Source: a virus. Taken from it: a DNA stretch of 64,000 bases. Both the position numbers and the translations under genes were made by a program. Numbering within the stretch: position 1 is the stretch's first letter; every line of letters starts with the position of its first letter. The stretch is taken from the UHGV virus genome UHGV-0287696. One strand, given 5' to 3'. Shown piece after piece: positions 20,909 through 62,462 of this stretch. The notes beneath the pieces were generated by a model that saw only the letters and a list, made by a program, of their open reading frames with translations, searched no databases and was not told the origin of the DNA.

Positions 20909-21436
20909 ATGGCATATCGTGTCGATTTAACGAAAGCACCTAAACAAATTTTAGTAGACCGGATTAACTACGTATTTAGTCTATCCTATACTGCTGATAA
21001 CATCGAGTTTAACGCAAACGGCGTTCAACCACTAACTTTAGCAGAACGTCAACGTTACGGACTAGAATCAAAGGTTGCTGCCGTCTTCCGTAACGGCGTT
21101 GTCGGAAACCAGGAATTCATTTTAACTCGCGTTGATTTGGCAACGTTCCTGGCCGATGAACCGGTGAGTGTACCGAAAGGCGCAGTAACGTCCAGCGAAG
21201 AGTTGGCTGATTATATCGTTGCACAAACAGGGATTGACCTGCGTGCTGACGACATTATGATTGAGCCGATTTCAGAGGAGCTGGATTCTTATGATGTTCG
21301 TCTCGTCCTGAATCATTTGTCTTTTAAAGGAACGATTCCGGTCGTATTTACTGATTCCACCCCACGCAAATTGGCGTCTCTTGTGACGAAATTGGCGTTG
21401 GATGGGTTCCGCCCAGGAGAATTAATCAATGTCTAA
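20909..21436 (+). CDS. hypothetical protein; possible distant member of recurrent domain family
   Basis: Contains ADYIVAQTGIDLRADDIMIE resembling the DLLxxINxxxGxNLxxxD motif. Confidence 0.45.
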   Translation: MAYRVDLTKAPKQILVDRINYVFSLSYTADNIEFNANGVQPLTLAERQRYGLESKVAAVFRNGVVGNQEFILTRVDLATFLADEPVSVPKGAVTSSEELADYIVAQTGIDLRADDIMIEPISEELDSYDVRLVLNHLSFKGTIPVVFTDSTPRKLASLVTKLALDGFRPGELINV

Positions 21437-40610: not shown

Positions 40611-40984
40611 TGCGTATCTGGACGTTACAGCTCGCTAAGTGGCGGTTAGCTAAGCAGAAAGGGTTTCACGCAGTGGATATCACTGTGAAGTCAGGGCGAA
40701 AGGAACTCGCCCCCGATTGGGATTTCTTGATGGCGTATAAAAACTCTGCAAAGGATGCAGCTGCTGAACGCGAGTACACGCTAAAGTATTTGTACAAACT
40801 CGAACGACTGTTAGATACCGACGCCGAAACTTTAGTGTCGTTACTTAGGCACGAAGATTTGGTTTTGATGTGTTATTGTCCCGCAGGCAAGTTTTGCCAT
40901 CGTCATCTACTGGCGAGCAAGCTTCAAGAAGTGGGATTGATGTTCGGTATCGACGTTGAGTTGTGTGGAGAATTAATCGAATGA
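40610..40984 (+). CDS. DUF4326-like protein (putative)
   Basis: C-terminal LVLMCYCPAGKFCHRHLLA resembles the CxC...CH motif I associate with DUF4326 phage proteins. Confidence 0.3.
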   Translation: MRIWTLQLAKWRLAKQKGFHAVDITVKSGRKELAPDWDFLMAYKNSAKDAAAEREYTLKYLYKLERLLDTDAETLVSLLRHEDLVLMCYCPAGKFCHRHLLASKLQEVGLMFGIDVELCGELIE

Positions 40985-41415
40985 AAGTAAAAGCAGAAAT
41001 AACGGTGATACCTGAAAGACAGGATATTAAAGTTAAAGGGTTATTATTGACATTACCTCGTTCGGATTTCTACGATCCTGAAAATCCCGCCGCAGCGTTT
41101 GCGCGCCTACTAAGACATCACATGAGCGTTTGTGAGGCTATTAAAGATCCTACAGAATTCAATACTGACTTTCCAAAAACTGTCAGTATTGAATTTTCTG
41201 GTGGCCATCTTACTGACATCATGGTGACAGCGGACGATAATAACGTTGAAGTTTATGGTGAGTTTTGTCCGGGTGGTGTATACGGTGACGATGTTCGAAA
41301 CTTTATTATTGAGCATGGTTACGTAGATCTAAAACCACGCATAATGTATCGCAACGATAAAATTTTAGAAATCCGATTCTTTGATATCAATCTAGCAAAG
41401 TCCGTTAAAGCGTAG
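40981..41415 (+). CDS. hypothetical protein
   Basis: ATG 40981 overlapping the upstream stop. Confidence 0.45.
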   Translation: MKVKAEITVIPERQDIKVKGLLLTLPRSDFYDPENPAAAFARLLRHHMSVCEAIKDPTEFNTDFPKTVSIEFSGGHLTDIMVTADDNNVEVYGEFCPGGVYGDDVRNFIIEHGYVDLKPRIMYRNDKILEIRFFDINLAKSVKA

Positions 41416-41448
41416 TAACTACTTCGATTTTTAGCTGTAAAATGACTG

Positions 41449-41492
41449 CCTACCGCCCGATTCTATGGGCGGTAGGTGTTTTTATTTTTTTT
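41449..41492 (+). terminator. intrinsic terminator
   Basis: cctaccgccc-gattctat-gggcggtagg followed by tgtttttattttttttg. Confidence 0.75.
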
Positions 41493-41508: not shown

Positions 41509-42069
41509 GTGACTACTTACGTACCTGATTTAAGTCTGGCCTCAGCCGAATTAGTGGTCGCTTTAATCAACCACGATAACGGTTCACGGTTGTCTCTAAA
41601 CGAAATCCGTATTAGCAACATTATGGCAAACCCGTCCCCGACCACTTCGCGTCGTAACACACTGACAGAGATTACAAAAATCAGGAAACCTGATGGTGCT
41701 TCTGTGGTTGTTTATTACGACCGTTTGGATGCGGACGAAGTGTTAGCGTCTGAACCTATTTTGATTTCGTTAGACGGTACCGAAGACAACCTTCGTGACA
41801 TTTTAGGTGTTGTAAATGAATTCTGCGGAACGAACTTACAACCCGAAGATTTACGTGCTGCAGATATCACCTTAGGTAACGAACCCATTGCTGTTAACGT
41901 TGCTGACGATTCTCCTGCGTGGATGAATGCGTTTATGGTAACGTTATTCGATACAACCGAACGAGCATTAGCAAACGAAGATGACGCGATCTTCTGTATT
42001 GGTGATGATGCTGTTCTTACTTTTGAGGTTCCAGATGACGACACAGCTGAAGAAAACCCGGCTACATGA
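41509..42069 (+). CDS. tail-associated protein carrying the recurrent anchor-like domain
   Basis: GTG 41509 with GGGAGG RBS; ~160 aa homologous to the C-terminal domain of ORF 47464 (VVALINHD..VVYYDRLDA..DILGVVNEFCGTNLQPEDL..VLTF). Confidence 0.45.
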   Translation: MTTYVPDLSLASAELVVALINHDNGSRLSLNEIRISNIMANPSPTTSRRNTLTEITKIRKPDGASVVVYYDRLDADEVLASEPILISLDGTEDNLRDILGVVNEFCGTNLQPEDLRAADITLGNEPIAVNVADDSPAWMNAFMVTLFDTTERALANEDDAIFCIGDDAVLTFEVPDDDTAEENPAT

Positions 42070-42271
42070 ACTTGACCGTTTTACCGGTAATGGAGGCCAA
42101 CGCAAACTTTTATCAAAACTTAACAATCCCAAATCATGAAGCGCGGAGTTGGGCATCACTTTCACGTTAGAAGATGATGGATTAAAACCAGTATAATAAT
42201 CCGCTTATAAAAATGTTGAGGGGTAAAACACTTCCTCAGATCTTTTAGCTCCCGATAGAGAATTAAATATC

Positions 42272-45200
42272 ATGGCTAAAGCGGTAAAGAAAATTCGTTT
42301 ACACGATTTACGTCCATACACCGGGGATATCGGTGAAGGCGTTTTACTTTTTTCGAAAGACGAAAGGGATTATCAGTTACCTGTCCGCGAGATTGTTGCG
42401 GATATTGACACCGTCAGAAACGCGGTTGCCGACGCACAAACGGCGGCGGCCAAATCGCAACAGTCTGCAACAGAAGCCACACAAGCAAAAGACTTAGCAG
42501 AAACCGCGAAGCAACAAACTGACACGTTAGCTTCCACCGTTAGCGAGCAAGCGGGAACCGTTGCCACTAAAACTGCTGAGGTTAGCAAAAAACACGCTGA
42601 AGTTTTAGCCGCGAAAACTGCCGTAGATACTGTATTACAGTCGGTAAATGAGAAAGCTCAAGCTGTCGCTACAAGCGAACAATCGGTGACGGCTGCAGCG
42701 GCTGATGTAACTAAGAAAGCAGAAACGGTTACGCAACAGGCCGGACAAGTTCAACAGACGGCTACCGGTGTCGAGAATACTGCGGCTTCAGTTGAGGCCA
42801 GTAAGGGCGCAGTGGAGAAGATTGCTGCACAGGTCGCGAAAGATAAAGAAAGTTCAGAAGGCGCAGCAACACGTTCGGAGTCAGCTGCCTTACGTGCGGA
42901 GAAAATCGCTGCGCAGGGCTTAATCGACGCTAGTACAACCGGTAAAGGTATCGTTAAACTTAACGATACACTGACTAGCGAATCCGTGACTGAGGCTGCC
43001 ACACCGTCCACGGTTAAACAGCTGAATGACGAATTACAGTTAAAAGCCAATAAACATTCGCCGAATTTTACGGGTAAACCGTCATCCCCAACACCCCCGA
43101 AAGATTCAAACGACACGAGTATTTCCACAACGGCCTGGGTGCGTGACGCGATTGCGGAACTGGTTGGTTCTTCACCCGAGACGTTAAATACCTTAGCGGA
43201 ATTAGCTGAGGCGTTAGGTAATGACCCTAACTTCGCAACAACGATTACTGGGGAACTTGCGCAGAAACAACCCCTCAGTCCGTTGCTCACCGCCATTGCC
43301 GCAGTCACCACAGCGGCAAACAAACTCATGTATTTCACTGGCAGTAATAAAGTCGGATTAACGGATTTTACAGAAACGGCTAGATCCTTGTTAGCGAAAG
43401 GGTCAACTGCGGATATCATCAATTTCTTGGGATTAAAAGCCACTGTAGATAAAGCGAATAGCGCGTTACAGAAAAACTCTAACGGCGCTGATATCCCAGA
43501 TAAAGAAATGTTTGCTCGCAATATCGGTCTGTCTCCTGACACCTATCTGCGTTTCCGTGGCGAAATGCCAGTAGATGCCGATATTAACACATTTGCTCCT
43601 GATGCCAATTACACAGGAACGTGGGCTAAGTCGACGTCAACCAATGCGTCGATGGCAAAACATTTCCCAGAAGACGGTGCAGTCGGTTATCTGGAAGTGT
43701 ATAAAGCCGGTAATTACAGTGGCGCACAGCGTTTTACCTGCCGTAATGGTAACGTGTACAACCGTATGCTGAGTGGCGCGTGGAATGGTGCCAATGGACC
43801 CTGGTCACCGTGGAGAATGGTAACTACTGGTGTACGTCCGTTATCTACCTCTATAGACTTGAACAGTTTGGGTGGCGCTGAGCATATGGGTAACTGGCGA
43901 AACTCGTCCAGTTCGCTGGCTGTTTTTAGCAGACATTACCCTGAAGAAGGTGGTGGCGCGCAAGGCGTACTAGAAGTAATGGAAGGTGGTCTTTTCGGAC
44001 GGTTGCAACGATACACCACACGTCGTGGTACAATGTATGTCCGTGGTTTGACCGCAACGTGGGATTCATCAAACCCGCAATGGGAAGATTGGATTCAGGT
44101 TGGTTATCAGACTGACGGTGCTTTCTTTAAAGCCAATTTTGACGATCTCGTTAAACCGGGACGTTTCAGTGTCACTGGTGAAGCAACTAATGGTCCACTT
44201 ACCGGTTCTTCTGGTGAAACCATATTAGGCGTTTGTGAAGTTACCTTACGCTTAGACGGTACAGGGGTCGAACAGAATTATACTACATACGGTACGGGTG
44301 TAGAAACTAAAGGTCGTAAATTCCAACGTATCCGTACGGGTAACGCTTGGAGCGATTGGCGCGAGATTTTCACATCATATTCGCTTCCGTTAGTATTAGG
44401 TATAGGCGGTGAACGCGCGAATGTTGATCCTTTAGACTGGCAAACCTATGACTTTAAACCGGGTGAGTTAATCTGTACACCACTTAACACCATGAAAAAC
44501 ATTCCTGCGGGAATGGATTGGGGTGTTATTGACGGTAACTTAGTTAGCATTCTGGTTGGTCCATCAGATGGCGCATCCTCAGGCCGGAGTATGTTGGTTT
44601 GGCGTAGTACGGTGTCTACTGCCAACTATCGATTCTTTGCAGTACGTATCGCCGGTGAGAAAGGTAGTCGTACGATTACACCACGACAGATGCCTGTATT
44701 GAATGCAGCACACACCTGGGCAGAAAAACAGACCTTTGCAAAAGGGTTAGCAGGTGAGTTAACAGGCAATGCTTCAACCGCAACGAAATTAAAGACCGCA
44801 CGTAGAATTGGTGGAGTCGCTTTCGACGGCAGTGGTGATATTAACCTCCCAGGTGTTAACCAACAGGGTAATCAAAACACCACGGGTAATGCCGGTACAG
44901 CCACTAAACTTCAAACCGCCAGAAATATTAACGGTGTGAGGTTCGATGGTTCTGCTGACATCAATATCAACACCCTGGTAGGTCGTGGTCGGGTTACTGC
45001 ACTAACCGGTTCAAACAAAGGTACGCCTGGTATTCAGATGTACGAAGTTTACAATAACGGTTATCCGACCGCTTATGGTAACTTGCTGCATTTGGGCGGT
45101 TCTACTGCATTAGGTGAAGGTGAACTGTTAATCGGTTGGTCGGGCACGAGTGGTGCGCACGCACCCGTTTATATTCGTAGTCGACGTGATACAGCGGATG

Positions 45201-46870
45201 CGCCGTGGTCAGATTGGGCACAAGTTTATACTGCCCGTGATAGTATTCCTGGTGTAAATACCACCGGTAATCAAGATACTACTGGTAACGCTGCTACCGC
45301 GACGAAACTGAAAACTGCTCGCAGAATCGGGGGCGTTACCTTTGACGGTACTGGGGATATCAATTTACCGGGGGTTAACCAGCAAGGTAACCAGAATACG
45401 ACAGGTAATGCAGCAACCGCTACTAAGTTACAAACAGCACGTAAGATCGGCGGTGTTAACTTTGACGGTTCGCAAGACATTAGTCTGCCCGGTGTGAACC
45501 AAACCGGTAACCAATCGACTACGGGGAATGCTGCGACAGCGACTAAGCTCCAGACTGCGCGAAATATAGGTGGCGTAGCTTTTGATGGTACTAAAGACAT
45601 CAACTTACCTGGCGTAAACCAAACGGGTAATCAGTCGACCACCGGAAACGCGGCCACTGCAACAAAATTGCAGACAGCGCGTACCATTAACGGTATCGCA
45701 TTTGACGGCACTAAAAACATCGAAATAACGGCTGAAAGTTTAAATCTTGGTCAAACTGTAGAATTGGCCGGTGGGTCATTGCAGAAGAAACAGAACGGTG
45801 CCGATATTCCAGATAAGAGAAAATTCTTACGAAATGTTGGTGCCGCGAACACAACAACTGTGTCTTTTAATGGTGGTGCCGGATGGTTCAAACTGGCAAC
45901 TGTAACGATGCCGCAAGCCAGTTCCGTGGTTTACATAAGCCTGATTGGTGGTGCAGGGTTTAACGTTGGTTCCCCGCATCAAGCAGGTATCTCTGAGCTG
46001 GTTCTGCGTGCAGGAAATGGGAATCCAAAAGGTATTACTGGTGCGTTATGGCGACTGACTTCAGTCGGCTTCGCTAATTTTGCATGGGTGAATACATCTG
46101 GTGACACTTACGATATTTATGTTGAAATAGGTAATTACGCCACCGGTGTTACTATTCAGTGGGATTACACTAGTAATGCCAACGTAACGATTCATACATC
46201 GCCAAGTTATACGGCTAATAAACCCGCAGGACTAACAGACGGTACCGTCTATCTGATTTACAGCACACACAACAAGCCTAACGCTGGTGACATCGGTGCG
46301 TTACCGTCAGGGGGCGGTACTATAGGTGGCGATTTAACCGTTAACGGTAAATTGGTCACTAAGTACCCTGATTTTCGAATCGCTTACGGCAACTACGGCT
46401 TTATGTTACGTAACGATGGTGCCAATACCTATTTCTTAGTAACCGACGCCGGTCAAGCTGCAACGGGTTCCTGGAACGGTCTACGTCCGTTGTATTTTAA
46501 TAATGCTAACGGTCAAGTAACCTTTGGTCATAACGTTACTGGCAGCGGTAACGGTTCGTTTAACGACGTACAGATTCGTTCTGACCGTCGTAACAAACGT
46601 AATCTGGTGAAACTAGATAAAGCTTTGGATCGGTTAGAGTTACTAACCGGTTATTTGTACGAAATTCAGCATCCTGACGACGGCTGGCAGACCTCTGTAG
46701 GTTTAATTGCCCAAGACGCATTAGAAGCGTTACCTGAACTTGTGTCTGAGGACGACGATGCCATTTCAGGCGAAAAACGTTTACGTCTAAACTACAATGG
46801 CGTTATTGCGCTGTTAGTAGAGGGGATGAAATCCCTTCGCCAAGAGCTTAAAGAGCTTAAGGAGAAATAA
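42272..46870 (+). CDS. tail fibre protein with Ala-rich N-terminal region, ~40-aa tandem repeats and C-terminal S74 intramolecular chaperone domain
   Basis: 1532 aa; repeats NxTGNAATATKLQTARxIGGVxFDGxxDINLPGV about seven times; C-terminus SDRRNKRNLVKLDKALDRLELLTGYLYE...GLIAQDALEALPELV is the classic S74 auto-cleaving chaperone signature. Confidence 0.8.
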   Translation: MAKAVKKIRLHDLRPYTGDIGEGVLLFSKDERDYQLPVREIVADIDTVRNAVADAQTAAAKSQQSATEATQAKDLAETAKQQTDTLASTVSEQAGTVATKTAEVSKKHAEVLAAKTAVDTVLQSVNEKAQAVATSEQSVTAAAADVTKKAETVTQQAGQVQQTATGVENTAASVEASKGAVEKIAAQVAKDKESSEGAATRSESAALRAEKIAAQGLIDASTTGKGIVKLNDTLTSESVTEAATPSTVKQLNDELQLKANKHSPNFTGKPSSPTPPKDSNDTSISTTAWVRDAIAELVGSSPETLNTLAELAEALGNDPNFATTITGELAQKQPLSPLLTAIAAVTTAANKLMYFTGSNKVGLTDFTETARSLLAKGSTADIINFLGLKATVDKANSALQKNSNGADIPDKEMFARNIGLSPDTYLRFRGEMPVDADINTFAPDANYTGTWAKSTSTNASMAKHFPEDGAVGYLEVYKAGNYSGAQRFTCRNGNVYNRMLSGAWNGANGPWSPWRMVTTGVRPLSTSIDLNSLGGAEHMGNWRNSSSSLAVFSRHYPEEGGGAQGVLEVMEGGLFGRLQRYTTRRGTMYVRGLTATWDSSNPQWEDWIQVGYQTDGAFFKANFDDLVKPGRFSVTGEATNGPLTGSSGETILGVCEVTLRLDGTGVEQNYTTYGTGVETKGRKFQRIRTGNAWSDWREIFTSYSLPLVLGIGGERANVDPLDWQTYDFKPGELICTPLNTMKNIPAGMDWGVIDGNLVSILVGPSDGASSGRSMLVWRSTVSTANYRFFAVRIAGEKGSRTITPRQMPVLNAAHTWAEKQTFAKGLAGELTGNASTATKLKTARRIGGVAFDGSGDINLPGVNQQGNQNTTGNAGTATKLQTARNINGVRFDGSADININTLVGRGRVTALTGSNKGTPGIQMYEVYNNGYPTAYGNLLHLGGSTALGEGELLIGWSGTSGAHAPVYIRSRRDTADAPWSDWAQVYTARDSIPGVNTTGNQDTTGNAATATKLKTARRIGGVTFDGTGDINLPGVNQQGNQNTTGNAATATKLQTARKIGGVNFDGSQDISLPGVNQTGNQSTTGNAATATKLQTARNIGGVAFDGTKDINLPGVNQTGNQSTTGNAATATKLQTARTINGIAFDGTKNIEITAESLNLGQTVELAGGSLQKKQNGADIPDKRKFLRNVGAANTTTVSFNGGAGWFKLATVTMPQASSVVYISLIGGAGFNVGSPHQAGISELVLRAGNGNPKGITGALWRLTSVGFANFAWVNTSGDTYDIYVEIGNYATGVTIQWDYTSNANVTIHTSPSYTANKPAGLTDGTVYLIYSTHNKPNAGDIGALPSGGGTIGGDLTVNGKLVTKYPDFRIAYGNYGFMLRNDGANTYFLVTDAGQAATGSWNGLRPLYFNNANGQVTFGHNVTGSGNGSFNDVQIRSDRRNKRNLVKLDKALDRLELLTGYLYEIQHPDDGWQTSVGLIAQDALEALPELVSEDDDAISGEKRLRLNYNGVIALLVEGMKSLRQELKELKEK
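44761..44990 (+). repeat. tandem coding repeats (block 1) within tail fibre gene
   Basis: Two ~120-bp units encoding GNASTATKLKTARRIGGVAFDG.. and GNAGTATKLQTARNINGVRFDG.. Confidence 0.6.
45250..45720 (+). repeat. tandem coding repeats (block 2, about four units of ~120 bp) within tail fibre gene
   Basis: Repeated ggtaa(c/t)ca..ac(c/t)acgggtaatgc.gc.ac.gc.ac.aa..t.ca.ac.gc encoding GNQxTTGNAATATKLQTAR. Confidence 0.65.
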
Positions 46871-46872
46871 AA

Positions 46873-47376
46873 ATGGGGGTAGCATCTGGATGGGTCGGTT
46901 CTTCGGCCAAGAACGAAACGGGCGAACAATGGATGAGCGCTGCTGGTAGTAAATTAGGATTGGGTAGACCTTTTATGATGAGTCAAATGGTGGGACGATC
47001 AATGGGCTGTAAAATTGCAACTGCTGCATATAGCGATTCTTTAGGTAAGAAATGGGGCGCGGTAGGGCCAAGCTGGCCGTTAAACCAGAAAAATCAGGGA
47101 ACCATTCAAAACGCGGGTAACTGCGGGGTGGGAACTTTAGTAGGTATCGAGTTACAGTTAACGACGATAGTTGCTAACGCAAAACCCACTTTAGCGGTTT
47201 ACTTACAAGGTGGGAGAGCCTCTAACATTACCGTAAATTTAGGTGGCAACACTTGTACGCTGACCTATCAGCAGGTTATTAACGGACAGCATTATTACTG
47301 GACTAATAACATCAGCGCTGCGTTCCAAAACGTGATGAAATCAACCGGTACACTGAGAGATTTCAAAATTAGTTAA
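46873..47376 (+). CDS. hypothetical protein downstream of tail fibre (fibre accessory?)
   Basis: 167-aa Gly/Ser-rich ORF starting 3 nt after the fibre stop. Confidence 0.45.
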   Translation: MGVASGWVGSSAKNETGEQWMSAAGSKLGLGRPFMMSQMVGRSMGCKIATAAYSDSLGKKWGAVGPSWPLNQKNQGTIQNAGNCGVGTLVGIELQLTTIVANAKPTLAVYLQGGRASNITVNLGGNTCTLTYQQVINGQHYYWTNNISAAFQNVMKSTGTLRDFKIS

Positions 47377-47463
47377 TTATTTTTCAAGTGGAAGCGCTTG
47401 AAATCGTAATCGGGGGGATGTTTTAAAAGACTTTCTACGTCCCCCTAAACTTAAAGGTGTGTT

Positions 47464-49398
47464 ATGATGTTGGTGCGCGATATTAAAGATTACACCGAAC
47501 TAGCAACATACGCGTTAAATTCGTTGTTAACGCTTGACAAACCAGAAATACTCGACGAATCCGTCACGATAACGGTAGATCAAGAAACGAACTATGATTA
47601 CGTTGGCCAAGTCACTGGTCGTGTTTCTGTAGCTAGTCCCACTGAATATAAAATTGCGATGTATACCTATACAACGGGAGAGTACGCGCAAGGTGAATCA
47701 GCATTAAACGAATCGGGTGAGTTTAATTTTAAACGAACATGGCCGGGGACAAAACAATTTCGTTTAATTAGAATTGCTGATGGCAAATGGATTTCTACGT
47801 TAGAGTTCCCATTGTGCATCCGTAGTTACCATATGCCAGAAAACGCGGACCCTGAAACGATCAGGATTATGAAAGATCGGTGTTATACTTACGATCAGGC
47901 TGTTGCTGCTCTCGCATTAATGGTATACGGTCATGAAAAGGTAGAACAGTTTGTAAAAGGTCTTTTAGCGCTGGTCAATGAAGACGGGGGCGTTAAATTC
48001 TACGTAAACCGACTTTCAGCTAAATCTTCGCGAAATTATTACCGTATGGGTAACGTCGCGTGGGTACTTTACGCTTTAGCTTTTTATCTTGAAAAATTTC
48101 CTGCCGGAAATCTAGCGGCACAGGTTCGTGAAAAATTAACACTTTCCTTAACCTGGCTGGAAACTTACAAGGTAACGCAGGAGACAGATCGCCGCAAAGG
48201 TTTATATCTTGGTGGAAAGGGTCGTTTTGTTACTACCGAATCAGGCGAACGTGTTTTTGAAGAAGACTACGTTGCACCTTTTGCGGCTTTAGAACATCAG
48301 GTAGATATTTGGTTCCTGTTCGAATTACTAGGGCGCGTCGGTTTTGATGCATACCAACAAAAAGCAGCGGACTTCGGTAATAGAATAGTAGAAGCTTTTT
48401 GGATGGAAGACGAAGGACGTTTTCGTCAGGGTGTGAGAGAAACAGAAGATGATAACGCAGCTGCGTTAGATCAGTCCAGTTGGGGTGGGCTATTTGCGGC
48501 CAAATTTAAACCAGAGTACGCCGAACGTTGTCACGCTTTTATGGAGAAATTTCGCTCGGAAACCTCTGAGTGTCGTGGCTACACACCATACAAAACCGAG
48601 TTTGGTTACCCTAATGCTAAAGAAGGGGTGTGGGTTGAAGGTGCCGCCGGTGTTGCATTATTCGAACGTCAGTTAGGAAATGATAAACGTGCTGTTGAGA
48701 TCATTAACGACTTAGATGTTCTTTTATCAGAATACGGTTATCGTGATTCTTGCGATGATCCTACCTATGATACGCTGCCGCCGTGGTGGTCAACCACAAA
48801 CACTGCATGGGTGCTTTTAGTCTGTAAGCCAAGTAATTTTTGGCTTGTAGATAAGTCTCCTTTAACGGAGAGATATAATCCGCAGAATAAATTTTTACCA
48901 GATATTTCATTAAACTCTTTAAATCTTGTAATTTCGTTAGTGAATCACGATTTAAAAACAGATTACACGGAGTCTGATGTTGAAATCAGCAAGATTTCAC
49001 TTAGCACGGAAGAAAATCGTGACACAACAGCGATAATGGAAATAAGACGTCCTAATAAACGGTCGTTACAGATCTATTACAATCGTTTAACCGCAGAGCG
49101 GTGGTTAAACCAGCAACCTATTCTGGTAAAGGTCACCGGTAATGGTTTTACTACTCGCGATCTGATCGACGGAATTAATGCGGTCTGTGGTAGTAATTTA
49201 CAAGCCGACGATCTTACCGATAAAACATTTACCGTAGGGAGGGACGCTGTAACATTACAAGTTTCACCCAACTCGCTAGGTTATAAAGGCCAATTCTCCG
49301 TTCTGGTTTTCGGTAACGATGAAGAAGCCGCAGTAACAAAAGACAACGATTTAATCGTTACTGCAGATAACCGTGTCTTAACATTCGGAGGTCACTAA
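47464..49398 (+). CDS. tail-associated protein with glycosidase-like central region and C-terminal recurrent domain (putative depolymerase-type protein)
   Basis: 644 aa; central TYDQAVAALALMVYG...WVLYALAFYLEKF...WGGLFAAKF suggests an alpha-helical toroid glycosidase fold (inference); C-terminal 160 aa homologous to ORF 41509. Confidence 0.4.
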   Translation: MMLVRDIKDYTELATYALNSLLTLDKPEILDESVTITVDQETNYDYVGQVTGRVSVASPTEYKIAMYTYTTGEYAQGESALNESGEFNFKRTWPGTKQFRLIRIADGKWISTLEFPLCIRSYHMPENADPETIRIMKDRCYTYDQAVAALALMVYGHEKVEQFVKGLLALVNEDGGVKFYVNRLSAKSSRNYYRMGNVAWVLYALAFYLEKFPAGNLAAQVREKLTLSLTWLETYKVTQETDRRKGLYLGGKGRFVTTESGERVFEEDYVAPFAALEHQVDIWFLFELLGRVGFDAYQQKAADFGNRIVEAFWMEDEGRFRQGVRETEDDNAAALDQSSWGGLFAAKFKPEYAERCHAFMEKFRSETSECRGYTPYKTEFGYPNAKEGVWVEGAAGVALFERQLGNDKRAVEIINDLDVLLSEYGYRDSCDDPTYDTLPPWWSTTNTAWVLLVCKPSNFWLVDKSPLTERYNPQNKFLPDISLNSLNLVISLVNHDLKTDYTESDVEISKISLSTEENRDTTAIMEIRRPNKRSLQIYYNRLTAERWLNQQPILVKVTGNGFTTRDLIDGINAVCGSNLQADDLTDKTFTVGRDAVTLQVSPNSLGYKGQFSVLVFGNDEEAAVTKDNDLIVTADNRVLTFGGH

Positions 49399-50018
49399 TG
49401 GCTGAACTGGTAGGAAAGGTACGCGTTCACGAACTGCCGACACTTTCAGAAGACGTCACAGGTGTAGTCGTCTTAGCGTCTAAAGAACAAACTGAATACC
49501 AACTCCCGATTGAAAAATTAGGGGGTGGTGAGGTTACAGTGAGTCCGTCGGCGAATAACATCCTTAAGTCTAACAGTGATGGGTTGTTTGTTAATGGTGC
49601 GCACCCGATTGTACCAAAAATAGATGCAAAAACCGTATCGGGAAATATGGTAGTAGAAAAAACGTTGACGGGTGGTGCGGTAATCTGCAAAACAACGGTT
49701 GACGTTAATAACAGGCTGGGTGTTACGCAATTATCAGGGGTATCAATTTATAGCCAGTGTCTGTTGGAAAATAAATTGGTTTACCTGGCAGCAGATGGTG
49801 GTATTATTGATGCGTACTTCTACGTTAGTGGTACAAAAACCACAGCGAGTACAATAACCCACACCATTCGTGTTGTTTTAGCGAAGGTACCCTCTAAAGT
49901 TGTCGATATCACCGATTTGTCTGAAACCGAAGTACAATACGAGAATAGTAATTTACCTGTTAAGATCGTTATTAAACATCTTGCAGGGACAACACTTTCT
50001 CAGAACGGAATGAAATAA
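49398..50018 (+). CDS. tail fibre-related protein sharing the N-terminal domain of the large fibre
   Basis: MAELVGKVRVHELPTLSEDVTGVVVLASKEQTEYQLPIEKL aligns with fibre N-terminus MAKAVKKIRLHDLRPYTGDIGEGVLLFSKDERDYQLPVREI. Confidence 0.5.
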   Translation: MAELVGKVRVHELPTLSEDVTGVVVLASKEQTEYQLPIEKLGGGEVTVSPSANNILKSNSDGLFVNGAHPIVPKIDAKTVSGNMVVEKTLTGGAVICKTTVDVNNRLGVTQLSGVSIYSQCLLENKLVYLAADGGIIDAYFYVSGTKTTASTITHTIRVVLAKVPSKVVDITDLSETEVQYENSNLPVKIVIKHLAGTTLSQNGMK

Positions 50019-50024
50019 ATTTTA

Positions 50025-50069
50025 GGTAGTAGGGGCTAAGCCCCTACTACCTTTCTTTTTTTATTTTTT
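50025..50069 (+). terminator. intrinsic terminator
   Basis: ggtagtaggggc-taa-gcccctactacc followed by a ~18-nt T-rich tract. Confidence 0.75.
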
Positions 50070-57318: not shown

Positions 57319-58167
57319 ATGTCTCTTACGTCAAAACAGAAACTGCTAAAACTCATCAACACTGAAAACAATATTGTTCCGCCATTGACCTTCAGTGATG
57401 TTGATATCGGCGAACCTACTGGTACTGGGGTTGATACCCAGGTGGTTCTGACTTCTAAACTCAAAGGCGATGAGTCTACTACTTTAACTGTGACTTATCA
57501 TCGTCGTAATTTGCCCGAATACCTAACAGGTGAGTTGGTATTCGGTAACGATGGTGTTGTAACCGCTACAGATTTGCTTAATGCAATCAACGCAAAATAC
57601 GATTTAAATATCCTGCCGTCGGATATCGTTGATGCGAAAGTTGAAGGTGAAACCCATCAGCTTACCGCTAACGAGAAATCCTACGAATGGTGTGGCGAGG
57701 TGACACTTACGCTACGCGACCCTATTGATTTGGCTAAACTGTTACCTGTTACTCAATTAGAAAACCTGGTAGAGTATCCGTCCACTAAGAAAGGTAACGC
57801 AGCGGTTTATTCTTATCCAATTGACTTCACCGCAGAAAAAGATTACCTCGATCCGATTACCATTAACGACACTGTCGACCTGGCTGAGTTAGCCACTAAA
57901 CTGGTCAACGTCGTTGATGAGAAATGGGTAAGTGTACCTAAAAACGCTGCTAATAACCTCTACGGTGCTAAGGTTATCTACGATGGCCCTACCGCAGGTT
58001 ACGAAGGCGCAAATACGAAGTACACGCGTGTGCTGGTACTCGCACTCAGTGGACTGTGTGCTAACCTGACCGGTAATCTGTTAATCCACTTTAACGGTAC
58101 CGATCGTCCGAAGTCGAAGATTGAATTAGCTAAAACTAATTCGGTCTTACCGGGATTCTTAGATTAA
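57319..58167 (+). CDS. virion-type protein, member of recurrent domain family
   Basis: N-terminal LLKLINTENNIVPPLTFSDVDIGEP..VDTQVVLTSK..TVTYHRRNL..DLLNAINAKYDLNILPSDIVD matches the family signature. Confidence 0.5.
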   Translation: MSLTSKQKLLKLINTENNIVPPLTFSDVDIGEPTGTGVDTQVVLTSKLKGDESTTLTVTYHRRNLPEYLTGELVFGNDGVVTATDLLNAINAKYDLNILPSDIVDAKVEGETHQLTANEKSYEWCGEVTLTLRDPIDLAKLLPVTQLENLVEYPSTKKGNAAVYSYPIDFTAEKDYLDPITINDTVDLAELATKLVNVVDEKWVSVPKNAANNLYGAKVIYDGPTAGYEGANTKYTRVLVLALSGLCANLTGNLLIHFNGTDRPKSKIELAKTNSVLPGFLD

Positions 58168-58180
58168 GAGGATTACAGTA

Positions 58181-58657
58181 ATGACCAGTCAAGAAACTAT
58201 CTTCGACCTTATTAAAAAGGCTAACCCAGACGCTGAGCTCGACACCGCCAAAGTTACATTGGGTGAGCCCGTCGTAAGTACCGGTGCGTACAACACCGAA
58301 GTTACGGTTGCGTCAATTAAGAATCTCGGTTATGCTAATAAGCAAACGTTCCAGTATAACCGCATTGATGCAGGTTTGTATTTCCTCAACGTATTGCCGA
58401 AACTGTTAGTTGAATCAGCAACTACGACTGCGGACCTGTTGCCTGTAATTAACGAACAATATGGCTTAACCCTTACTGAAGACGACGTATGGGTAGAGCA
58501 GGTTGGTGAGTTACCGCTGGACGGCAGTACAATCGAGCACGGCATTTTCTTCCGTCCTGAGTGCCTAACCTGGGTCGGTGGTTTTACAGTGCGCGTTGCG
58601 CGTAAGCCGACTGTTGAAACACCGCCAGCTAATCCATCGCGCGCTAAGAAGAAATAA
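58181..58657 (+). CDS. virion-type protein, member of recurrent domain family
   Basis: IFDLIKKANPDAELDTAKVTLGEP..NTEVTVASIK..FQYNRIDAG..DLLPVINEQYGLTLTEDDVWV. Confidence 0.5.
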   Translation: MTSQETIFDLIKKANPDAELDTAKVTLGEPVVSTGAYNTEVTVASIKNLGYANKQTFQYNRIDAGLYFLNVLPKLLVESATTTADLLPVINEQYGLTLTEDDVWVEQVGELPLDGSTIEHGIFFRPECLTWVGGFTVRVARKPTVETPPANPSRAKKK

Positions 58658-58718: not shown

Positions 58719-59309
58719 ATGGCCGAACGTTGGACTAAAGAAGGTATTATTGCTTCGAAAACAGATTTAGAAGGCGGGTACGTAAACGACCCTGACGATA
58801 AAGGTGGGGAAACCTGTCACGGTGTAACACTAACAACTGCGCGCGAATACGGGTATAAAGGAAGAATGAAGGATCTGACCCGTGCGCAAGCGTTTGATAT
58901 TTACGATCGCGGTTGGTGGAAGAAACTTAAACTCGATGAGATTTTAGCTATCTCACCCTTACTCGCAGACCGGATGTTTGATTTTGCTATTAACTCTGGC
59001 CGCGTTAACTGCGTGAAATCGTTACAACGTATTCTCAACGTTTTAAATAACGAAGGGAAACTTTACGCAGATATTGACACCGACGGCGGTATGGGACCTA
59101 AAACGCTAGGTGCCCTGAATGCTTATCTGAATTACCGTAAAGACGAAGGATTAGGCATCTTAATCTTTGCCTTAATCTCACACCAGGTAACTTACTACAC
59201 AGAAATCTCCGAAAAGCGTAAGAAGAATGAAAAATTCGCTTACGGCTGGTACGCACGTGTGTTCAGGGAAATGCCGGATTATGTGGCGAAGGCGGGGTTA
59301 GTAAAATGA
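58719..59309 (+). CDS. endolysin, GH108-type N-terminal domain plus peptidoglycan-binding domain
   Basis: EGGYVNDPDDKGGETCHGVT is the GH108 signature (catalytic Glu in EGGY); C-terminal ...DTDGGMGPKTLGALNAYL resembles PG_binding_3; RBS AGAGGAG. Confidence 0.8.
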   Translation: MAERWTKEGIIASKTDLEGGYVNDPDDKGGETCHGVTLTTAREYGYKGRMKDLTRAQAFDIYDRGWWKKLKLDEILAISPLLADRMFDFAINSGRVNCVKSLQRILNVLNNEGKLYADIDTDGGMGPKTLGALNAYLNYRKDEGLGILIFALISHQVTYYTEISEKRKKNEKFAYGWYARVFREMPDYVAKAGLVK

Positions 59310-59410: not shown

Positions 59411-59425
59411 GGGAAGGTGTGGGTA

Positions 59426-60091
59426 ATGGAGAAGCTTCAATATAAACGTTTAGACAATAAGTGGTTTGTATTAACGGAGGATTACCATTATCCGTTTACG
59501 TTACGTGAAATTTATCACGACCACGTACACTTAGACCGTGCGGTTTATTTAACGGGTGTATTGCCTGACACACAACTGTGGTTAACGGCACCGAAAGGGT
59601 TCGTTACCGATTTAGCGTCGATTCCTGAACACCTCCAGGGAATCTTCCATCCTGACGGACCGTGGGCACCTGCGGCCTGCATTCACGACCTACTTTATCA
59701 AAAATGTAGTACGGAACGGAGCTATCCCATGACACCGGGTGGTAACGTTTCGCGTTTTATCGATAAAGAGTTCTCTGATTTAACGTTCCTGCGTATTATG
59801 CAGTCGTTGGAAATCTCGCCTTATATCTGCCAAACATTTTATAAGGCCGTCGTTGAATTCGGCTGGGATTCCTACGTAGATCCTAATGCAATGCCATCCT
59901 ACAACACTAACGCGTTTCGTACGTTAGATTACAATCGAAACTATTTATTCGTTCGCGAGTTTAAGGAACCTGCAATCCCTGACCACGAACGTATTGATAT
60001 CACCACAGATCAGCCCGTTAATGTCAAATACCTGAACATCAAACGTGCTTTTCTGTCTGGGAGGGAAGATGTTTCATCCAAATCCGAGTAA
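59426..60091 (+). CDS. DUF1353-like protein
   Basis: ATG 59426 (RBS GGGAAGG); PKGFVTDLASIP and AACIHDLLY match DUF1353 motifs as I recall them. Confidence 0.45.
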   Translation: MEKLQYKRLDNKWFVLTEDYHYPFTLREIYHDHVHLDRAVYLTGVLPDTQLWLTAPKGFVTDLASIPEHLQGIFHPDGPWAPAACIHDLLYQKCSTERSYPMTPGGNVSRFIDKEFSDLTFLRIMQSLEISPYICQTFYKAVVEFGWDSYVDPNAMPSYNTNAFRTLDYNRNYLFVREFKEPAIPDHERIDITTDQPVNVKYLNIKRAFLSGREDVSSKSE

Positions 60092-61320: not shown

Positions 61321-61866
61321 ATGGCTAAAGCTTTCAATCTGCAGCTCATTGAAGCTGTTAAAGCTAAAAACCCTGAAACTGCTTCTAAACTGACCGTAAA
61401 TGATGTCGATTTCGGGGCCGTAGAAGCTTACACCCCGACCGGTAAAAGCGACGCCCGTAACACTAAAGTTGTCCTGACAGCGAAGAGCACGAGTGCTAAC
61501 TTCACCGGTAATAAAGAATTTCATTACATCCGTCTGGCATCCGCTAACCTGATTGGGGCCAAAGCTTACCAGCAGGAAGGTAGCCTCGACCTGGAAAATG
61601 ACGCCATCGTAACCAAACTCAATCAAGAAATGGTTACTAAAGGTTATGCCGATGACGCGTTCGCTGTAGGTGAACTCACTATTGAGAAAACTAATGGCGA
61701 GAGCGGTGCTAAGGTTTACACTATCAAAGTAAACGAAGGTCACATCAAATTCTTAGCCGGTACCATTGCTACCTTCACCTATACCAACCCGGTTCCTCCG
61801 AAGGTAGCTCTGAGCGGCCTGGAAGGTGAACTGGATGGTTTCACCGCACCGTCTCCTAAAGAGTAA
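61321..61866 (+). CDS. abundant virion-type protein, member of recurrent domain family
   Basis: Strongly optimised codons; QLIEAVKAKNPETASKLTVNDVDFGA..NTKVVLTAK..FHYIRLA..GELDGFTAPS. Confidence 0.55.
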   Translation: MAKAFNLQLIEAVKAKNPETASKLTVNDVDFGAVEAYTPTGKSDARNTKVVLTAKSTSANFTGNKEFHYIRLASANLIGAKAYQQEGSLDLENDAIVTKLNQEMVTKGYADDAFAVGELTIEKTNGESGAKVYTIKVNEGHIKFLAGTIATFTYTNPVPPKVALSGLEGELDGFTAPSPKE

Positions 61867-61931: not shown

Positions 61932-62462
61932 ATGGCAGCTACTAACCAGATGATGTTGGTCGCGCTTTACAATGCTGCTAACACCGAGCTACCACATCAG
62001 GTAACTGATAAAGAAGTGTCCTTTGGTCTCCCTACTGCGCTGGAAGGCGAAGGTAAGAATACCAAAGTTACCATGACTGCACTACCAGGTTCTGAGAATT
62101 TCAAAGGCGCAATCGAACTGAAATACGATCGTCTGGAACCGGGTGTTGTAGGGCGTATTGAACTAACTGACGATCTGTCTCGTTGGGAAGATCAAAACGA
62201 ATTGCGCGCATGGTTACAATATTACATCAATAAAGTTAAACCGGACGATGCTATTCATCCAGCGGACGTTTCTTATTCTACCGAAGACCAGAAAGACGAA
62301 CATGAAAACGTCACTCTGCGTACGGTAACGTGCACCGTTACTGAAAAGAACCTCCGTTATAAACCAGGTGTAATGGCAACTTTCGTAATTACGCCGAAAG
62401 TTGTTGATAATCGTATTGACCTGGCCACCACCAACGGTGAGCTGGACGGCTTTACGTCCTAA
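61932..62462 (+). CDS. abundant virion-type protein, member of recurrent domain family
   Basis: Optimised codons; MLVALYNAANTELPHQVTDKEVSFGLP..NTKVTMTAL..LKYDRLE..GELDGFTS. Confidence 0.55.
   Translation: MAATNQMMLVALYNAANTELPHQVTDKEVSFGLPTALEGEGKNTKVTMTALPGSENFKGAIELKYDRLEPGVVGRIELTDDLSRWEDQNELRAWLQYYINKVKPDDAIHPADVSYSTEDQKDEHENVTLRTVTCTVTEKNLRYKPGVMATFVITPKVVDNRIDLATTNGELDGFTS

Follow-up and report, generated by a model that had tools for sequence, protein, structure and literature searches.

How does a nucleus-forming jumbo phage hold the fibres and enzymes by which it recognizes its host? Host recognition by these phages is poorly understood, and the outer baseplate and the fibres are the parts least resolved in recent cryo-electron microscopy. 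The question is raised by an operon-like block of about 8.6-8.7 kb at positions 41509-50018 of a 64,000-nucleotide stretch of the virus genome UHGV-0287696 (this whole stretch is called the window here). A preliminary description had read the block as a modular receptor-binding cluster with a giant repeat-containing fibre. Its observation proved to be real and its core reading was supported, with corrections in the details.

We consider it likely that the block is an exchangeable host-recognition operon of two cassettes, each formed by a gp122-type DUF7941 gene and an adjoining gene whose product begins with a module of ~45 amino acids (aa), referred to here as the N-module. Cassette 1 would comprise a 186-aa DUF7941 protein, the dead relic of an ancestral small N-module gene and a 1532-aa trimeric fibre. 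This fibre is predicted to trimerize, to fold with the help of its S74 chaperone and to shed aa 1437-1532 by cleavage between R1436 and S1437, and a 167-aa gp38-like adhesin would then cap the exposed tip and contact the receptor. Cassette 2 would consist of a DUF7941 unit that has acquired an N-terminal (alpha/alpha)6 glycosidase-like domain, which may act on surface polysaccharide, and of a 206-aa N-module protein. By its N-module each fibre would be plugged into the virion, the most likely site being in or next to the partner DUF7941 protein at the peripheral baseplate.

A rare N-terminal module next to a DUF7941 subfamily

The similarity between the N-termini of the fibre and of the open reading frame (ORF) 49398, pointed out in the preliminary description, was modest in the pairwise BLASTP comparison (39% identity over 41 aa, E 8e-8). 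The relationship became unambiguous when an independent profile hidden Markov model, built only from gp123 of phage SPN3US, gp140 of Erwinia phage Asesino and the homologue in the IMG/VR locus L005, was run against the 627 ORF fragments of the window and recovered the fibre (E 1.3e-15), ORF 49398 (4.8e-10) and a relic in front of the fibre gene (3.6e-8), the next best match having an E of 2.5. The motif, MAxxVKKxRLHELxxxxGDxxxxVLLxSKDxKEYQLP, starts at residue 1, extends over ~45 aa and corresponds to no Pfam or PHROG family. When a two-sequence N-module profile was compared with 1.84 billion representative proteins, only 19 clusters were retrieved, about 17 of them genuine. The genuine matches were always located at residue 1, in proteins of 31-1494 aa (full-length ones include proteins of 133, 154-156, 188, 205, 259-273, 706-710 and 1494 aa), one of which bears a SASA carbohydrate esterase and DUF6645 while others bear immunoglobulin-like domains. 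In ORF 49398, whose start overlaps the stop of ORF 47464 (TAATG), the N-module (aa 1-45) is followed by a portable tip domain (aa 47-206); this protein had no tblastn match in isolated phages, and a PDB sequence search with it gave nothing useful. The relic begins MTTQLKKTRLHELDRFTGN and is the remnant of a gp123-type N-module gene, with the fibre gene starting 133 bases downstream. As to the proposal of a single docking site on the virion for the fibre and ORF 49398, the shared module was borne out and we infer the docking from it.

ORFs 41509 and 47464 had been described as sharing a different domain, and they do (34% identity over 169 aa, E 6e-31). This domain is DUF7941 (PF25613; 69.9 and 51.9 bits, respectively, for a curated cutoff of 27), of which ORF 41509 covers profile positions 3-153 of 276. 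ORF 41509 has a GTG start, five bases 3' of a GGGAGG motif, and is 45-47% identical to SPN3US gp122 and Asesino gp139. The syntenic site contains gp122 (DUF7941), gp123 (156 aa, with the N-module) and gp124 (1005 aa) in SPN3US, and gp139-141 in Asesino; both gp123 and gp124 have been detected in SPN3US virions by mass spectrometry (PMC5694885 supplement). At least seven DUF7941 paralogs are encoded in the window, so that the domain is not confined to the cluster. Each gp122-type gene was followed, within -35 to +10 nucleotides (nt), by an N-module gene or its relic at every locus examined, that is, in the window, SPN3US, Asesino and the related-phage loci L004-L009, L015, L017, L020 and L021, whereas other DUF7941 paralogs were not followed by N-module genes. 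In the window, ORF 49398 and the relic are the ones that follow such a gene directly. (L-numbers designate the loci of related phages compared; L002 is SPN3US and L023 is Edwardsiella phage PEi20.)

What DUF7941 proteins might do is suggested by studies in other phages. According to a 2026 preprint on phage Goslar, DUF7941 is specific to chimalliviruses and has two parts, a globular domain at the N-terminus and a linker. In vitro it assembles head to tail into filaments, and a 'fibre cloud' suspended from the peripheral baseplate is the arrangement proposed for it. In the phiKZ atlas, the N-terminal domain of gp127 has been modelled in the outer baseplate (PMC13250141); our own PDB search with the DUF7941 profile gave a weak match to phiKZ gp127 (E 0.11), which we rejected as evidence and kept as a lead into the literature. 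ORF 41509 is a bare DUF7941 unit without a binding domain, and it is better understood as an adaptor or a filament subunit than as the alternative receptor-binding protein that it had been taken for. We tentatively propose, as a possibility with less than even chances, that gp122-type DUF7941 and the N-module are a dedicated socket-and-plug pair by which the Seoulvirus/Erskinevirus lineage hangs fibres and enzymes derived from T-even, P2, Mu and lambdoid phages on a DUF7941 filament or peripheral-baseplate system. As a separate observation, the C-terminus of SPN3US gp124 (ASLDITFTIPDD; L002 16000-16052) resembles the acidic tail of the gp122-type protein (DDAVLTFEVPDDD; window 41990-42069), a likeness that may point to a docking strand common to both or, the motif being short, be due to chance.

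The fibre tip and its gp38-like protein

The S74-type C-terminal domain that had been proposed for the fibre was confirmed by Pfam (PF13884, 40.8 bits for a curated cutoff of 22, aa 1437-1491 of 1532) and by alignment of PDB 6f45_A, the gp37 tip and chaperone of phage S16, to aa 1378-1531 (E 8e-13 to 4e-14). The S74 fold forms only in the trimer. A Ser-Lys dyad (S-x4-K) is present as S1437 and K1442 within the predicted site DVQIR/SDRRNK (the slash marks the bond to be cleaved), which aligns with the mapped cleavage site of S16 gp37, DLNVS/SDRRIKK, and with that of fPS phages, DVYIR/SDGRLK (PMC7917993).

The gene behind the fibre was overlooked in the preliminary description. ORF 46873 starts at 46873, the stop codon of the fibre ending at 46870, and its 167-aa product has a Gp38_N attachment domain (PF21721, 72.1 bits for a cutoff of 25; also phrog_1121). 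W7 and W20 align with the tryptophans of S16 gp38, the alignment with 6f45_D covering aa 1-62 only. In S16, two such tryptophan 'prongs' anchor the adhesin in the tip exposed by chaperone cleavage (PMC7917993). The remainder (aa 46-167) was modelled by AlphaFold2 (AF2) as a confident beta-sandwich, with a predicted local distance difference test (pLDDT) of about 90. The AF2 model found nothing significant in the PDB with Foldseek, and its only fold matches were short Gp38_N proteins of T4-like (Proteus) phages. The protein contains no glycine-rich motifs, and the beta-helix/polyglycine-II sandwich that defines T2/S16 gp38 was not recognized in it. With regard to the fibre as receptor binder, as it had been described, the contact is probably not made by the fibre itself, and the ORF 46873 product should sit on the tip exposed by the S74 domain.

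Most relatives (L004, L005, L006, L009 and L017) have tandem gp38 genes encoding a classical glycine-rich protein (212-263 aa) and a short one (167-170 aa) with the same attachment domain, and the T4-like phage PEi20 (L023) has two short gp38 genes in tandem. The short protein is the sole gp38 in the window, L015 and L021.

A glycosidase-like domain ahead of DUF7941

ORF 47464 is a fusion, and its larger part had also been overlooked: aa 7-470 form a beta-sandwich and (alpha/alpha)6 glycosidase-like domain, and aa 476-644 are DUF7941 of the gp122 type. The AF2 model has a pLDDT >90 over aa 10-470. In Foldseek, this part matched rhamnosidase, invertase, GH63 and GH76 structures with probability 1.0 (4xhc, 5x32, 5goo, 4wvc and 4boj), at target template modelling scores (TM-scores) of 0.42-0.62 and a sequence identity to the solved enzymes of 8-14%; a PDB sequence search with ORF 47464 gave nothing useful. 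The modelled fold is that of an (alpha/alpha)6 barrel, and the domain probably binds or cuts surface polysaccharide. Most homologues of aa 7-470 are 49-61% identical and belong to enterobacterial prophage tail fibres. A known fibre anchor (PF08400, PF12571, PF18668 or PF03406) precedes the domain in almost every one of the 96 other homologues. The DUF7941 part stands alone in L004, L005 and L015 as a protein of 171 aa, 79% identical. The idea that the glycosidase-like domain is a remnant of a deleted gp124-type gene was discarded, as ORF 47464 has no similarity to SPN3US gp124.

Source phage and exchange among its relatives

The capsid/virion-RNA-polymerase/helicase region (6-22 kb of the window) is 76-78% identical in nt to Asesino and to Salmonella phages of the SPN3US group, and Seoulvirus is classified in Chimalliviridae. 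To judge from this identity, the source is an uncultivated SPN3US-related jumbo phage, a chimallivirus of Enterobacteriaceae related to Seoulvirus and Erskinevirus. Isolated phages in the collection searched gave no match to the 8.7-kb cluster region except for three short patches; close uncultivated relatives of 150-227 kb are present in IMG/VR and other public assemblies. In addition, near-identical cluster proteins (P0099, P0105, P0108, P0114, P0117, P0120 and P0122) occur on 150-226-kb contigs of bacterial assemblies labelled Salmonella Chester, Kentucky and Typhimurium, Shigella boydii and sonnei, and E. coli, which suggests carrier-state infection or phage contamination of the isolates. 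Because relatives are found in assemblies with these Salmonella, Shigella and E. coli labels, an enterobacterial host is indicated.

The gene orders of the relatives (Table 1) are those of a locus in which parts come and go: tip swaps, loss and gain of gp38 genes, a two-gene deletion, a domain fusion and a 706-aa esterase standing in for the 206-aa protein were all found. The DNA of the window is collinear with L005 up to window position 42075 and resumes at 42158, which corresponds to L005 13950. From this alignment, the window lineage has deleted ~3.4 kb containing the gp123-like and the 1001-aa gp124-like genes, and the relic is the scar. The deletion is common to the window, L003/L009, L004 and L021 and is absent from L005/L006, and the relic is also present in L021. 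By the same kind of comparison, the window lineage has lost the classical gp38a. A 9-nt tandem repeat (AAGAGCTTA, x2.6, encoding KELKELKEK) is found at the extreme end of the fibre gene (46842-46864); it marks where the window departs from L005, just ahead of the absent gp38a, and may be part of the deletion junction.

Table 1. Order of genes at the locus in the window and in related phages (product names with lengths in aa; gp38a, classical; gp38b, short; N-mod, N-module protein; DUF, DUF7941 protein)
Locus	Gene order
Window	186 / relic / fibre 1532 / gp38b 167 / 644 / 206
L009	fibre 1540 / gp38a 263 / gp38b 167 / 644 / 206
L004	DUF / fibre 1480 / gp38a 260 / gp38b 170 / DUF 171 / 206
L005	DUF / N-mod 153 / 1001 / fibre 1493 / gp38a 212 / gp38b 168 / DUF 171 / 206
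L017	fibre 1497 / two gp38 / DUF 170 / N-mod-SASA 706
L021	DUF 186 / relic / fibre 1438 / gp38b 167 / N-mod 273 / DUF4376 / DUF 170 / N-mod 709 / DUF4376
L020	fibre 1306 with Caudo_TAP chaperone instead of S74 / DUF 171 / N-mod 207 / N-mod 710

Within the fibre, the window is 96-100% identical to L009 up to aa 1020 and 30-37% identical over the tip and chaperone; it is 100% identical to L005 over aa 1141-1500 and 61-71% over the Ala-rich stalk, and 10-21% identical to L004 over aa 1141-1320. Moreover, two phages, one a Mu-like Yersinia phage and the other the 107-109-kb E. coli phage CMS-2020a, match positions 45779-46263 and 46873-47025 at 85-94% nt identity. These patches indicate that modules of fibres and adhesins have recently passed between temperate phages and a lineage of lytic jumbo phages. 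Taken as sequence comparisons, these data show that all parts behind the N-module, and the fibre tip with its adhesins, are exchanged through recombination with relatives and with unrelated temperate phages.

The view of a modular receptor-binding cluster with domain shuffling was thus upheld, since relatives show a swapped fibre tip, the domain fusion that gave ORF 47464 and a 706-aa SASA-esterase with the same N-module in place of the 206-aa protein. Neither of the outcomes named beforehand as refuting this view occurred, the S74 and the N-terminal similarities both being upheld. The shuffling stands; the word 'alternative' for these receptor-binding proteins does not strictly apply, as two to four N-module proteins are encoded together in genomes of the clade and are co-deployed.

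Alternative readings of the DUF7941 and gp38-like proteins

Several points speak against the scheme proposed above. Published placements of the DUF7941 family disagree: the SPN3US authors assigned it, as their 'paralog family B', to the head, having found members in a tailless mutant, and gp122 was barely detected in virions (PMC5694885 supplement). The link of the N-module to DUF7941 or to a virion site is drawn from adjacency and from start/stop overlap, which are circumstantial, and the model of ORF 47464 is of low confidence in its DUF7941 part (pLDDT <50). The 167-aa protein has neither the glycine-rich receptor-binding sandwich nor a solved fold relative, its adhesin role being argued by analogy, and most relatives have a second, classical gp38 that the window does not have.

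The first of these points would be explained if the DUF7941 proteins (ORF 41509 and the C-terminal part of ORF 47464) were head or ejected proteins that are mere neighbours of the fibre genes, the N-module docking elsewhere, for instance at the baseplate or on fibre-network proteins of the phiKZ gp131 type. The head label given to family B after its detection in the tailless mutant and the scarcity in virions of gp122, a suggested further member, would both agree with this. We regard it as unlikely, because ORF 47464 joins DUF7941 to a domain otherwise found in tail fibres, the N-terminal domain of phiKZ gp127 has been placed in the outer baseplate by modelling, carbohydrate-binding and hydrolase domains are fused to DUF7941 in Goslar, and the gp122-type/N-module gene pair is strictly conserved. 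A place for DUF7941 at the peripheral baseplate, as partner of the N-module, is the reading that we prefer.

A similar doubt concerns the 167-aa protein, which might be a fibre assembly factor like the T4 gp38 chaperone and act off the virion, leaving receptor binding to the fibre tip. Its structural relatives in T4-like Proteus phages are annotated as 'distal long tail fiber assembly catalyst', its lack of glycine-rich motifs would be in keeping with such a function, and so would the additional classical gp38 adhesin of most relatives. It seems improbable to us, however, as the fibre has an intramolecular chaperone of its own, the protein keeps the attachment domain together with both tryptophans by which gp38 of S16 is held on the cleaved tip, proteins of this type are the sole gp38 in three of the loci (the window, L015 and L021), and 'assembly catalyst' annotations are often mere transfers from T4. 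We retain a tip adhesin as the preferred function.

Architecture of the fibre and its repeats

The fibre is a mosaic (Table 2). Its N-terminal region is Ala-rich as described before, with 25.3% Ala in aa 46-215 compared with 6-12% elsewhere in the fibre, and this region had no match in isolated phages. From about aa 195 onward the fibre resembles P2 gpH, lambda Stf and Mu S. The internal duplications came from a windowed comparison, a self-BLAST of the whole protein returning the identity match only. One of them is a 45-aa 'NGADIPDK' motif present at aa 386-430 and 1157-1201 (43427-43561 and 45740-45874; 51% identity); Mu tail fibre S has the motif as well. Since a mosaic breakpoint among the relatives falls on the second copy, the motif may be a recombination linker.

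The preliminary description had counted about seven ~40-aa repeats in two DNA blocks. The two blocks and an exact 40-aa period were found; the count is six (2+4), as given by six occurrences of the motif TGNAxTATKL, and a 93-aa domain separates the blocks. The units are 48-88% identical in protein and 46-72% in DNA, with a longest exact shared run of ≤10 nt, and even unit pairs with up to 88% protein identity are only 67-72% identical in DNA. Tandem Repeats Finder detected no array at the fibre repeats, and a DNA repeat search of 41-51 kb gave only weak families of 20-30 nt. The repeats exist at the protein level only. This conservation, much higher in protein than in DNA, fits old duplications under purifying selection, or selection against recombinogenic DNA identity. 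Designed 'Cake' propeller proteins, the sole PDB sequence matches, were rejected as a structure for the repeats, no stretch passing alone and the matches being periodicity artefacts.

Among the relatives aligned, six units are present in the window, L004 and L015 and five in L009, L005 and L006. The five-unit fibres have a clean 40-aa gap in block 2 (three units there), which the aligner puts at aa 1059-1099. The idea that the repeats could drive recombinational length variation is only weakly supported: the copy number does differ by one unit, but with ≤10 nt of uninterrupted identity between units the array is currently a poor substrate for homologous recombination. That the repeats are an active device for length variation finds some favour in the difference being exactly one in-register unit, but we give it little chance, given this divergence of the units, the modest size of a one-unit difference across seven fibres, and the location of the mosaic junctions between relatives, which lie at the array end beside the separate 'NGADIPDK' motif and not within the array.

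Borders and neighbouring genes

The ORFs of the preliminary description were all present where it had placed them. Two strong terminator-like hairpins, which it had overlooked, bracket the cluster exactly (Table 2). A scan for sigma-70 promoters found 20 compared with 17.6 expected, which is chance level, and such promoters are not expected in this phage group. Just upstream of the cluster, a 150-aa ORF (40963-41415) has weak PHROG matches to head maturation protease. A 'head maturation protease' is annotated several genes upstream of the gp122-type genes in SPN3US and Asesino, and this is possibly the truncated protease paralog described for SPN3US. Further downstream, an endolysin-like protein (Glyco_hydro_108 and PG_binding_3; 58719-59309) and a DUF1353 protein (59417-60091) adjoin the DUF7941 paralog array.

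Table 2. Features of the cluster and DUF7941 paralogs in the window
Feature	Position	Strand	Remarks
Terminator-like hairpin	41447..41478	+	13-bp stem, 8 GC pairs, T-run; ends upstream unit, left border
gp122-type DUF7941 protein, 186 aa	41509..42069	+	N-terminal globular domain and ~30-aa acidic tail; proposed socket/adaptor
34-codon N-module relic	42035..42139	+	ATG start; overlaps 3' end of ORF 41509
Mosaic long fibre, 1532 aa	42272..46870	+	
Fibre N-module, aa 1-45	42272..42406	+	Clade-specific N-terminal anchor
Fibre Ala-rich region, aa 46-215	42407..42916	+	Presumed helical stalk
Fibre P2 gpH / lambda Stf / Mu S-like shaft, aa ~221-420	42932..43531	+	Includes Phage_fiber_2 at aa 221-261
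Fibre duplicated ~85-aa knob-like domain, aa 432-517 and 524-610	43565..44101	+	Copies 35-39% identical
Fibre 40-aa repeat block 1, 2 units, aa 825-904	44744..44983	+	
Fibre 40-aa repeat block 2, 4 units, aa 998-1157	45263..45742	+	
Fibre exchangeable domain, aa ~1170-1331	45779..46263	+	85-88% nt identity to Mu-like Yersinia phage and E. coli phage CMS-2020a; 10-21% aa identity to L004
Fibre Gp34_trimer-like trimerisation domain, aa 1342-1408	46295..46495	+	Also matches Mu S and T4 gp34 structures
Fibre Peptidase_S74 intramolecular chaperone, aa 1437-1532	46580..46867	+	Predicted self-cleavage R1436/S1437
Short gp38-like tip adhesin (putative), 167 aa	46873..47376	+	
Fusion protein, 644 aa	47464..49398	+	Glycosidase-like and DUF7941
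Short N-module protein, 206 aa	49398..50018	+	
Terminator-like hairpin	50024..50052	+	13-bp stem, T-run; right border
Five DUF7941 paralogs outside the cluster	20909-21436, 57319-58167, 58181-58657, 61321-61866, 61932-62462		None followed by N-module gene; correspond to SPN3US 'paralog family B'

Comparison with known systems

In its general kind, the block is familiar: it is a modular locus with several receptor-binding proteins, conserved anchors and swapped distal parts. Loci of this kind with shared N-terminal adaptors include those of CBA120 (tailspike proteins TSP1-4), G7C (gp63.1 and gp66) and the Klebsiella jumbo phages ΦK64-1 and RaK2, which likewise have recognition genes side by side, conserved N-terminal anchors and freely exchanged distal domains. 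Pfam detected no T4 gp10-like or TSP N-terminal adaptors in the six cluster proteins, and the resemblance to CBA120 and G7C is functional only.

The fibre tip is most similar to that of the T2/S16 long tail fibre (PDB 6F45), with which it has in common a C-terminal S74 chaperone, a near-identical cleavage motif and a next gene with Gp38_N and both tryptophans. It differs in belonging to a chimallivirus and not to Straboviridae, in an adhesin of 167 aa with a predicted beta-sandwich instead of a beta-helix and polyglycine sandwich, and in a fibre that is a single chain of 1532 aa and has another anchor at its N-terminus.

ORFs 41509 and 47464 share the PF25613 N-terminal domain with Goslar gp22/gp23, phiKZ gp126/gp127 and SPN3US family B, and have a short tail like Goslar gp23. 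As in the Goslar fusions, DUF7941 is joined in ORF 47464 to a domain that looks sugar-active, but there DUF7941 is N-terminal and the accessory domain C-terminal, an order that is reversed in ORF 47464. Unlike other DUF7941 proteins, those of the gp122-type subfamily are uniquely paired with N-module genes. The same ~460-aa domain of ORF 47464 is found in enterobacterial prophage fibres of E. coli, Citrobacter, Salmonella and Yersinia (e.g. phiSTEC1575-Stx2k), where it is C-terminal and located behind its fibre anchors, whereas in ORF 47464 it is N-terminal and ahead of DUF7941. Finally, the window and the gp122-gp123-gp124 site of SPN3US (gp139-141 in Asesino) agree in syntenic position, in having the same DUF7941 protein and in the N-module on the next gene. 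In the window, by contrast, gp123 and gp124 are reduced to the relic, and the locus also contains a second cassette, a gp38-like gene and a fibre resembling those of T-even, P2 and Mu phages. The unfamiliar parts of the locus are the pairing of a rare, unnamed N-module with one DUF7941 subfamily, a DUF7941 fusion in reversed order, and a tip of the T2/S16 type that, in a chimallivirus, has a short non-canonical gp38 as its only tip protein.

Significance for jumbo phages

The T2/S16-type device of a self-cleaving fibre with a tip adhesin is documented here as having moved into a chimallivirus, and a short, uncharacterized class of gp38 can be the sole tip protein. If the gp122-type proteins and the N-module do form a socket and a plug, the DUF7941 'fibre cloud' would be the scaffold of a plug-in receptor-binding system, and ORF 47464, with its N-terminal accessory domain, could sit inside the filament rather than cap it. 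For the biology of nucleus-forming jumbo phages, the locus offers a testable parts list made of a rare anchor, a constant DUF7941 partner gene and natural swaps that mark the limits of the modules, and these module boundaries are what the engineering of jumbo-phage host range would need.

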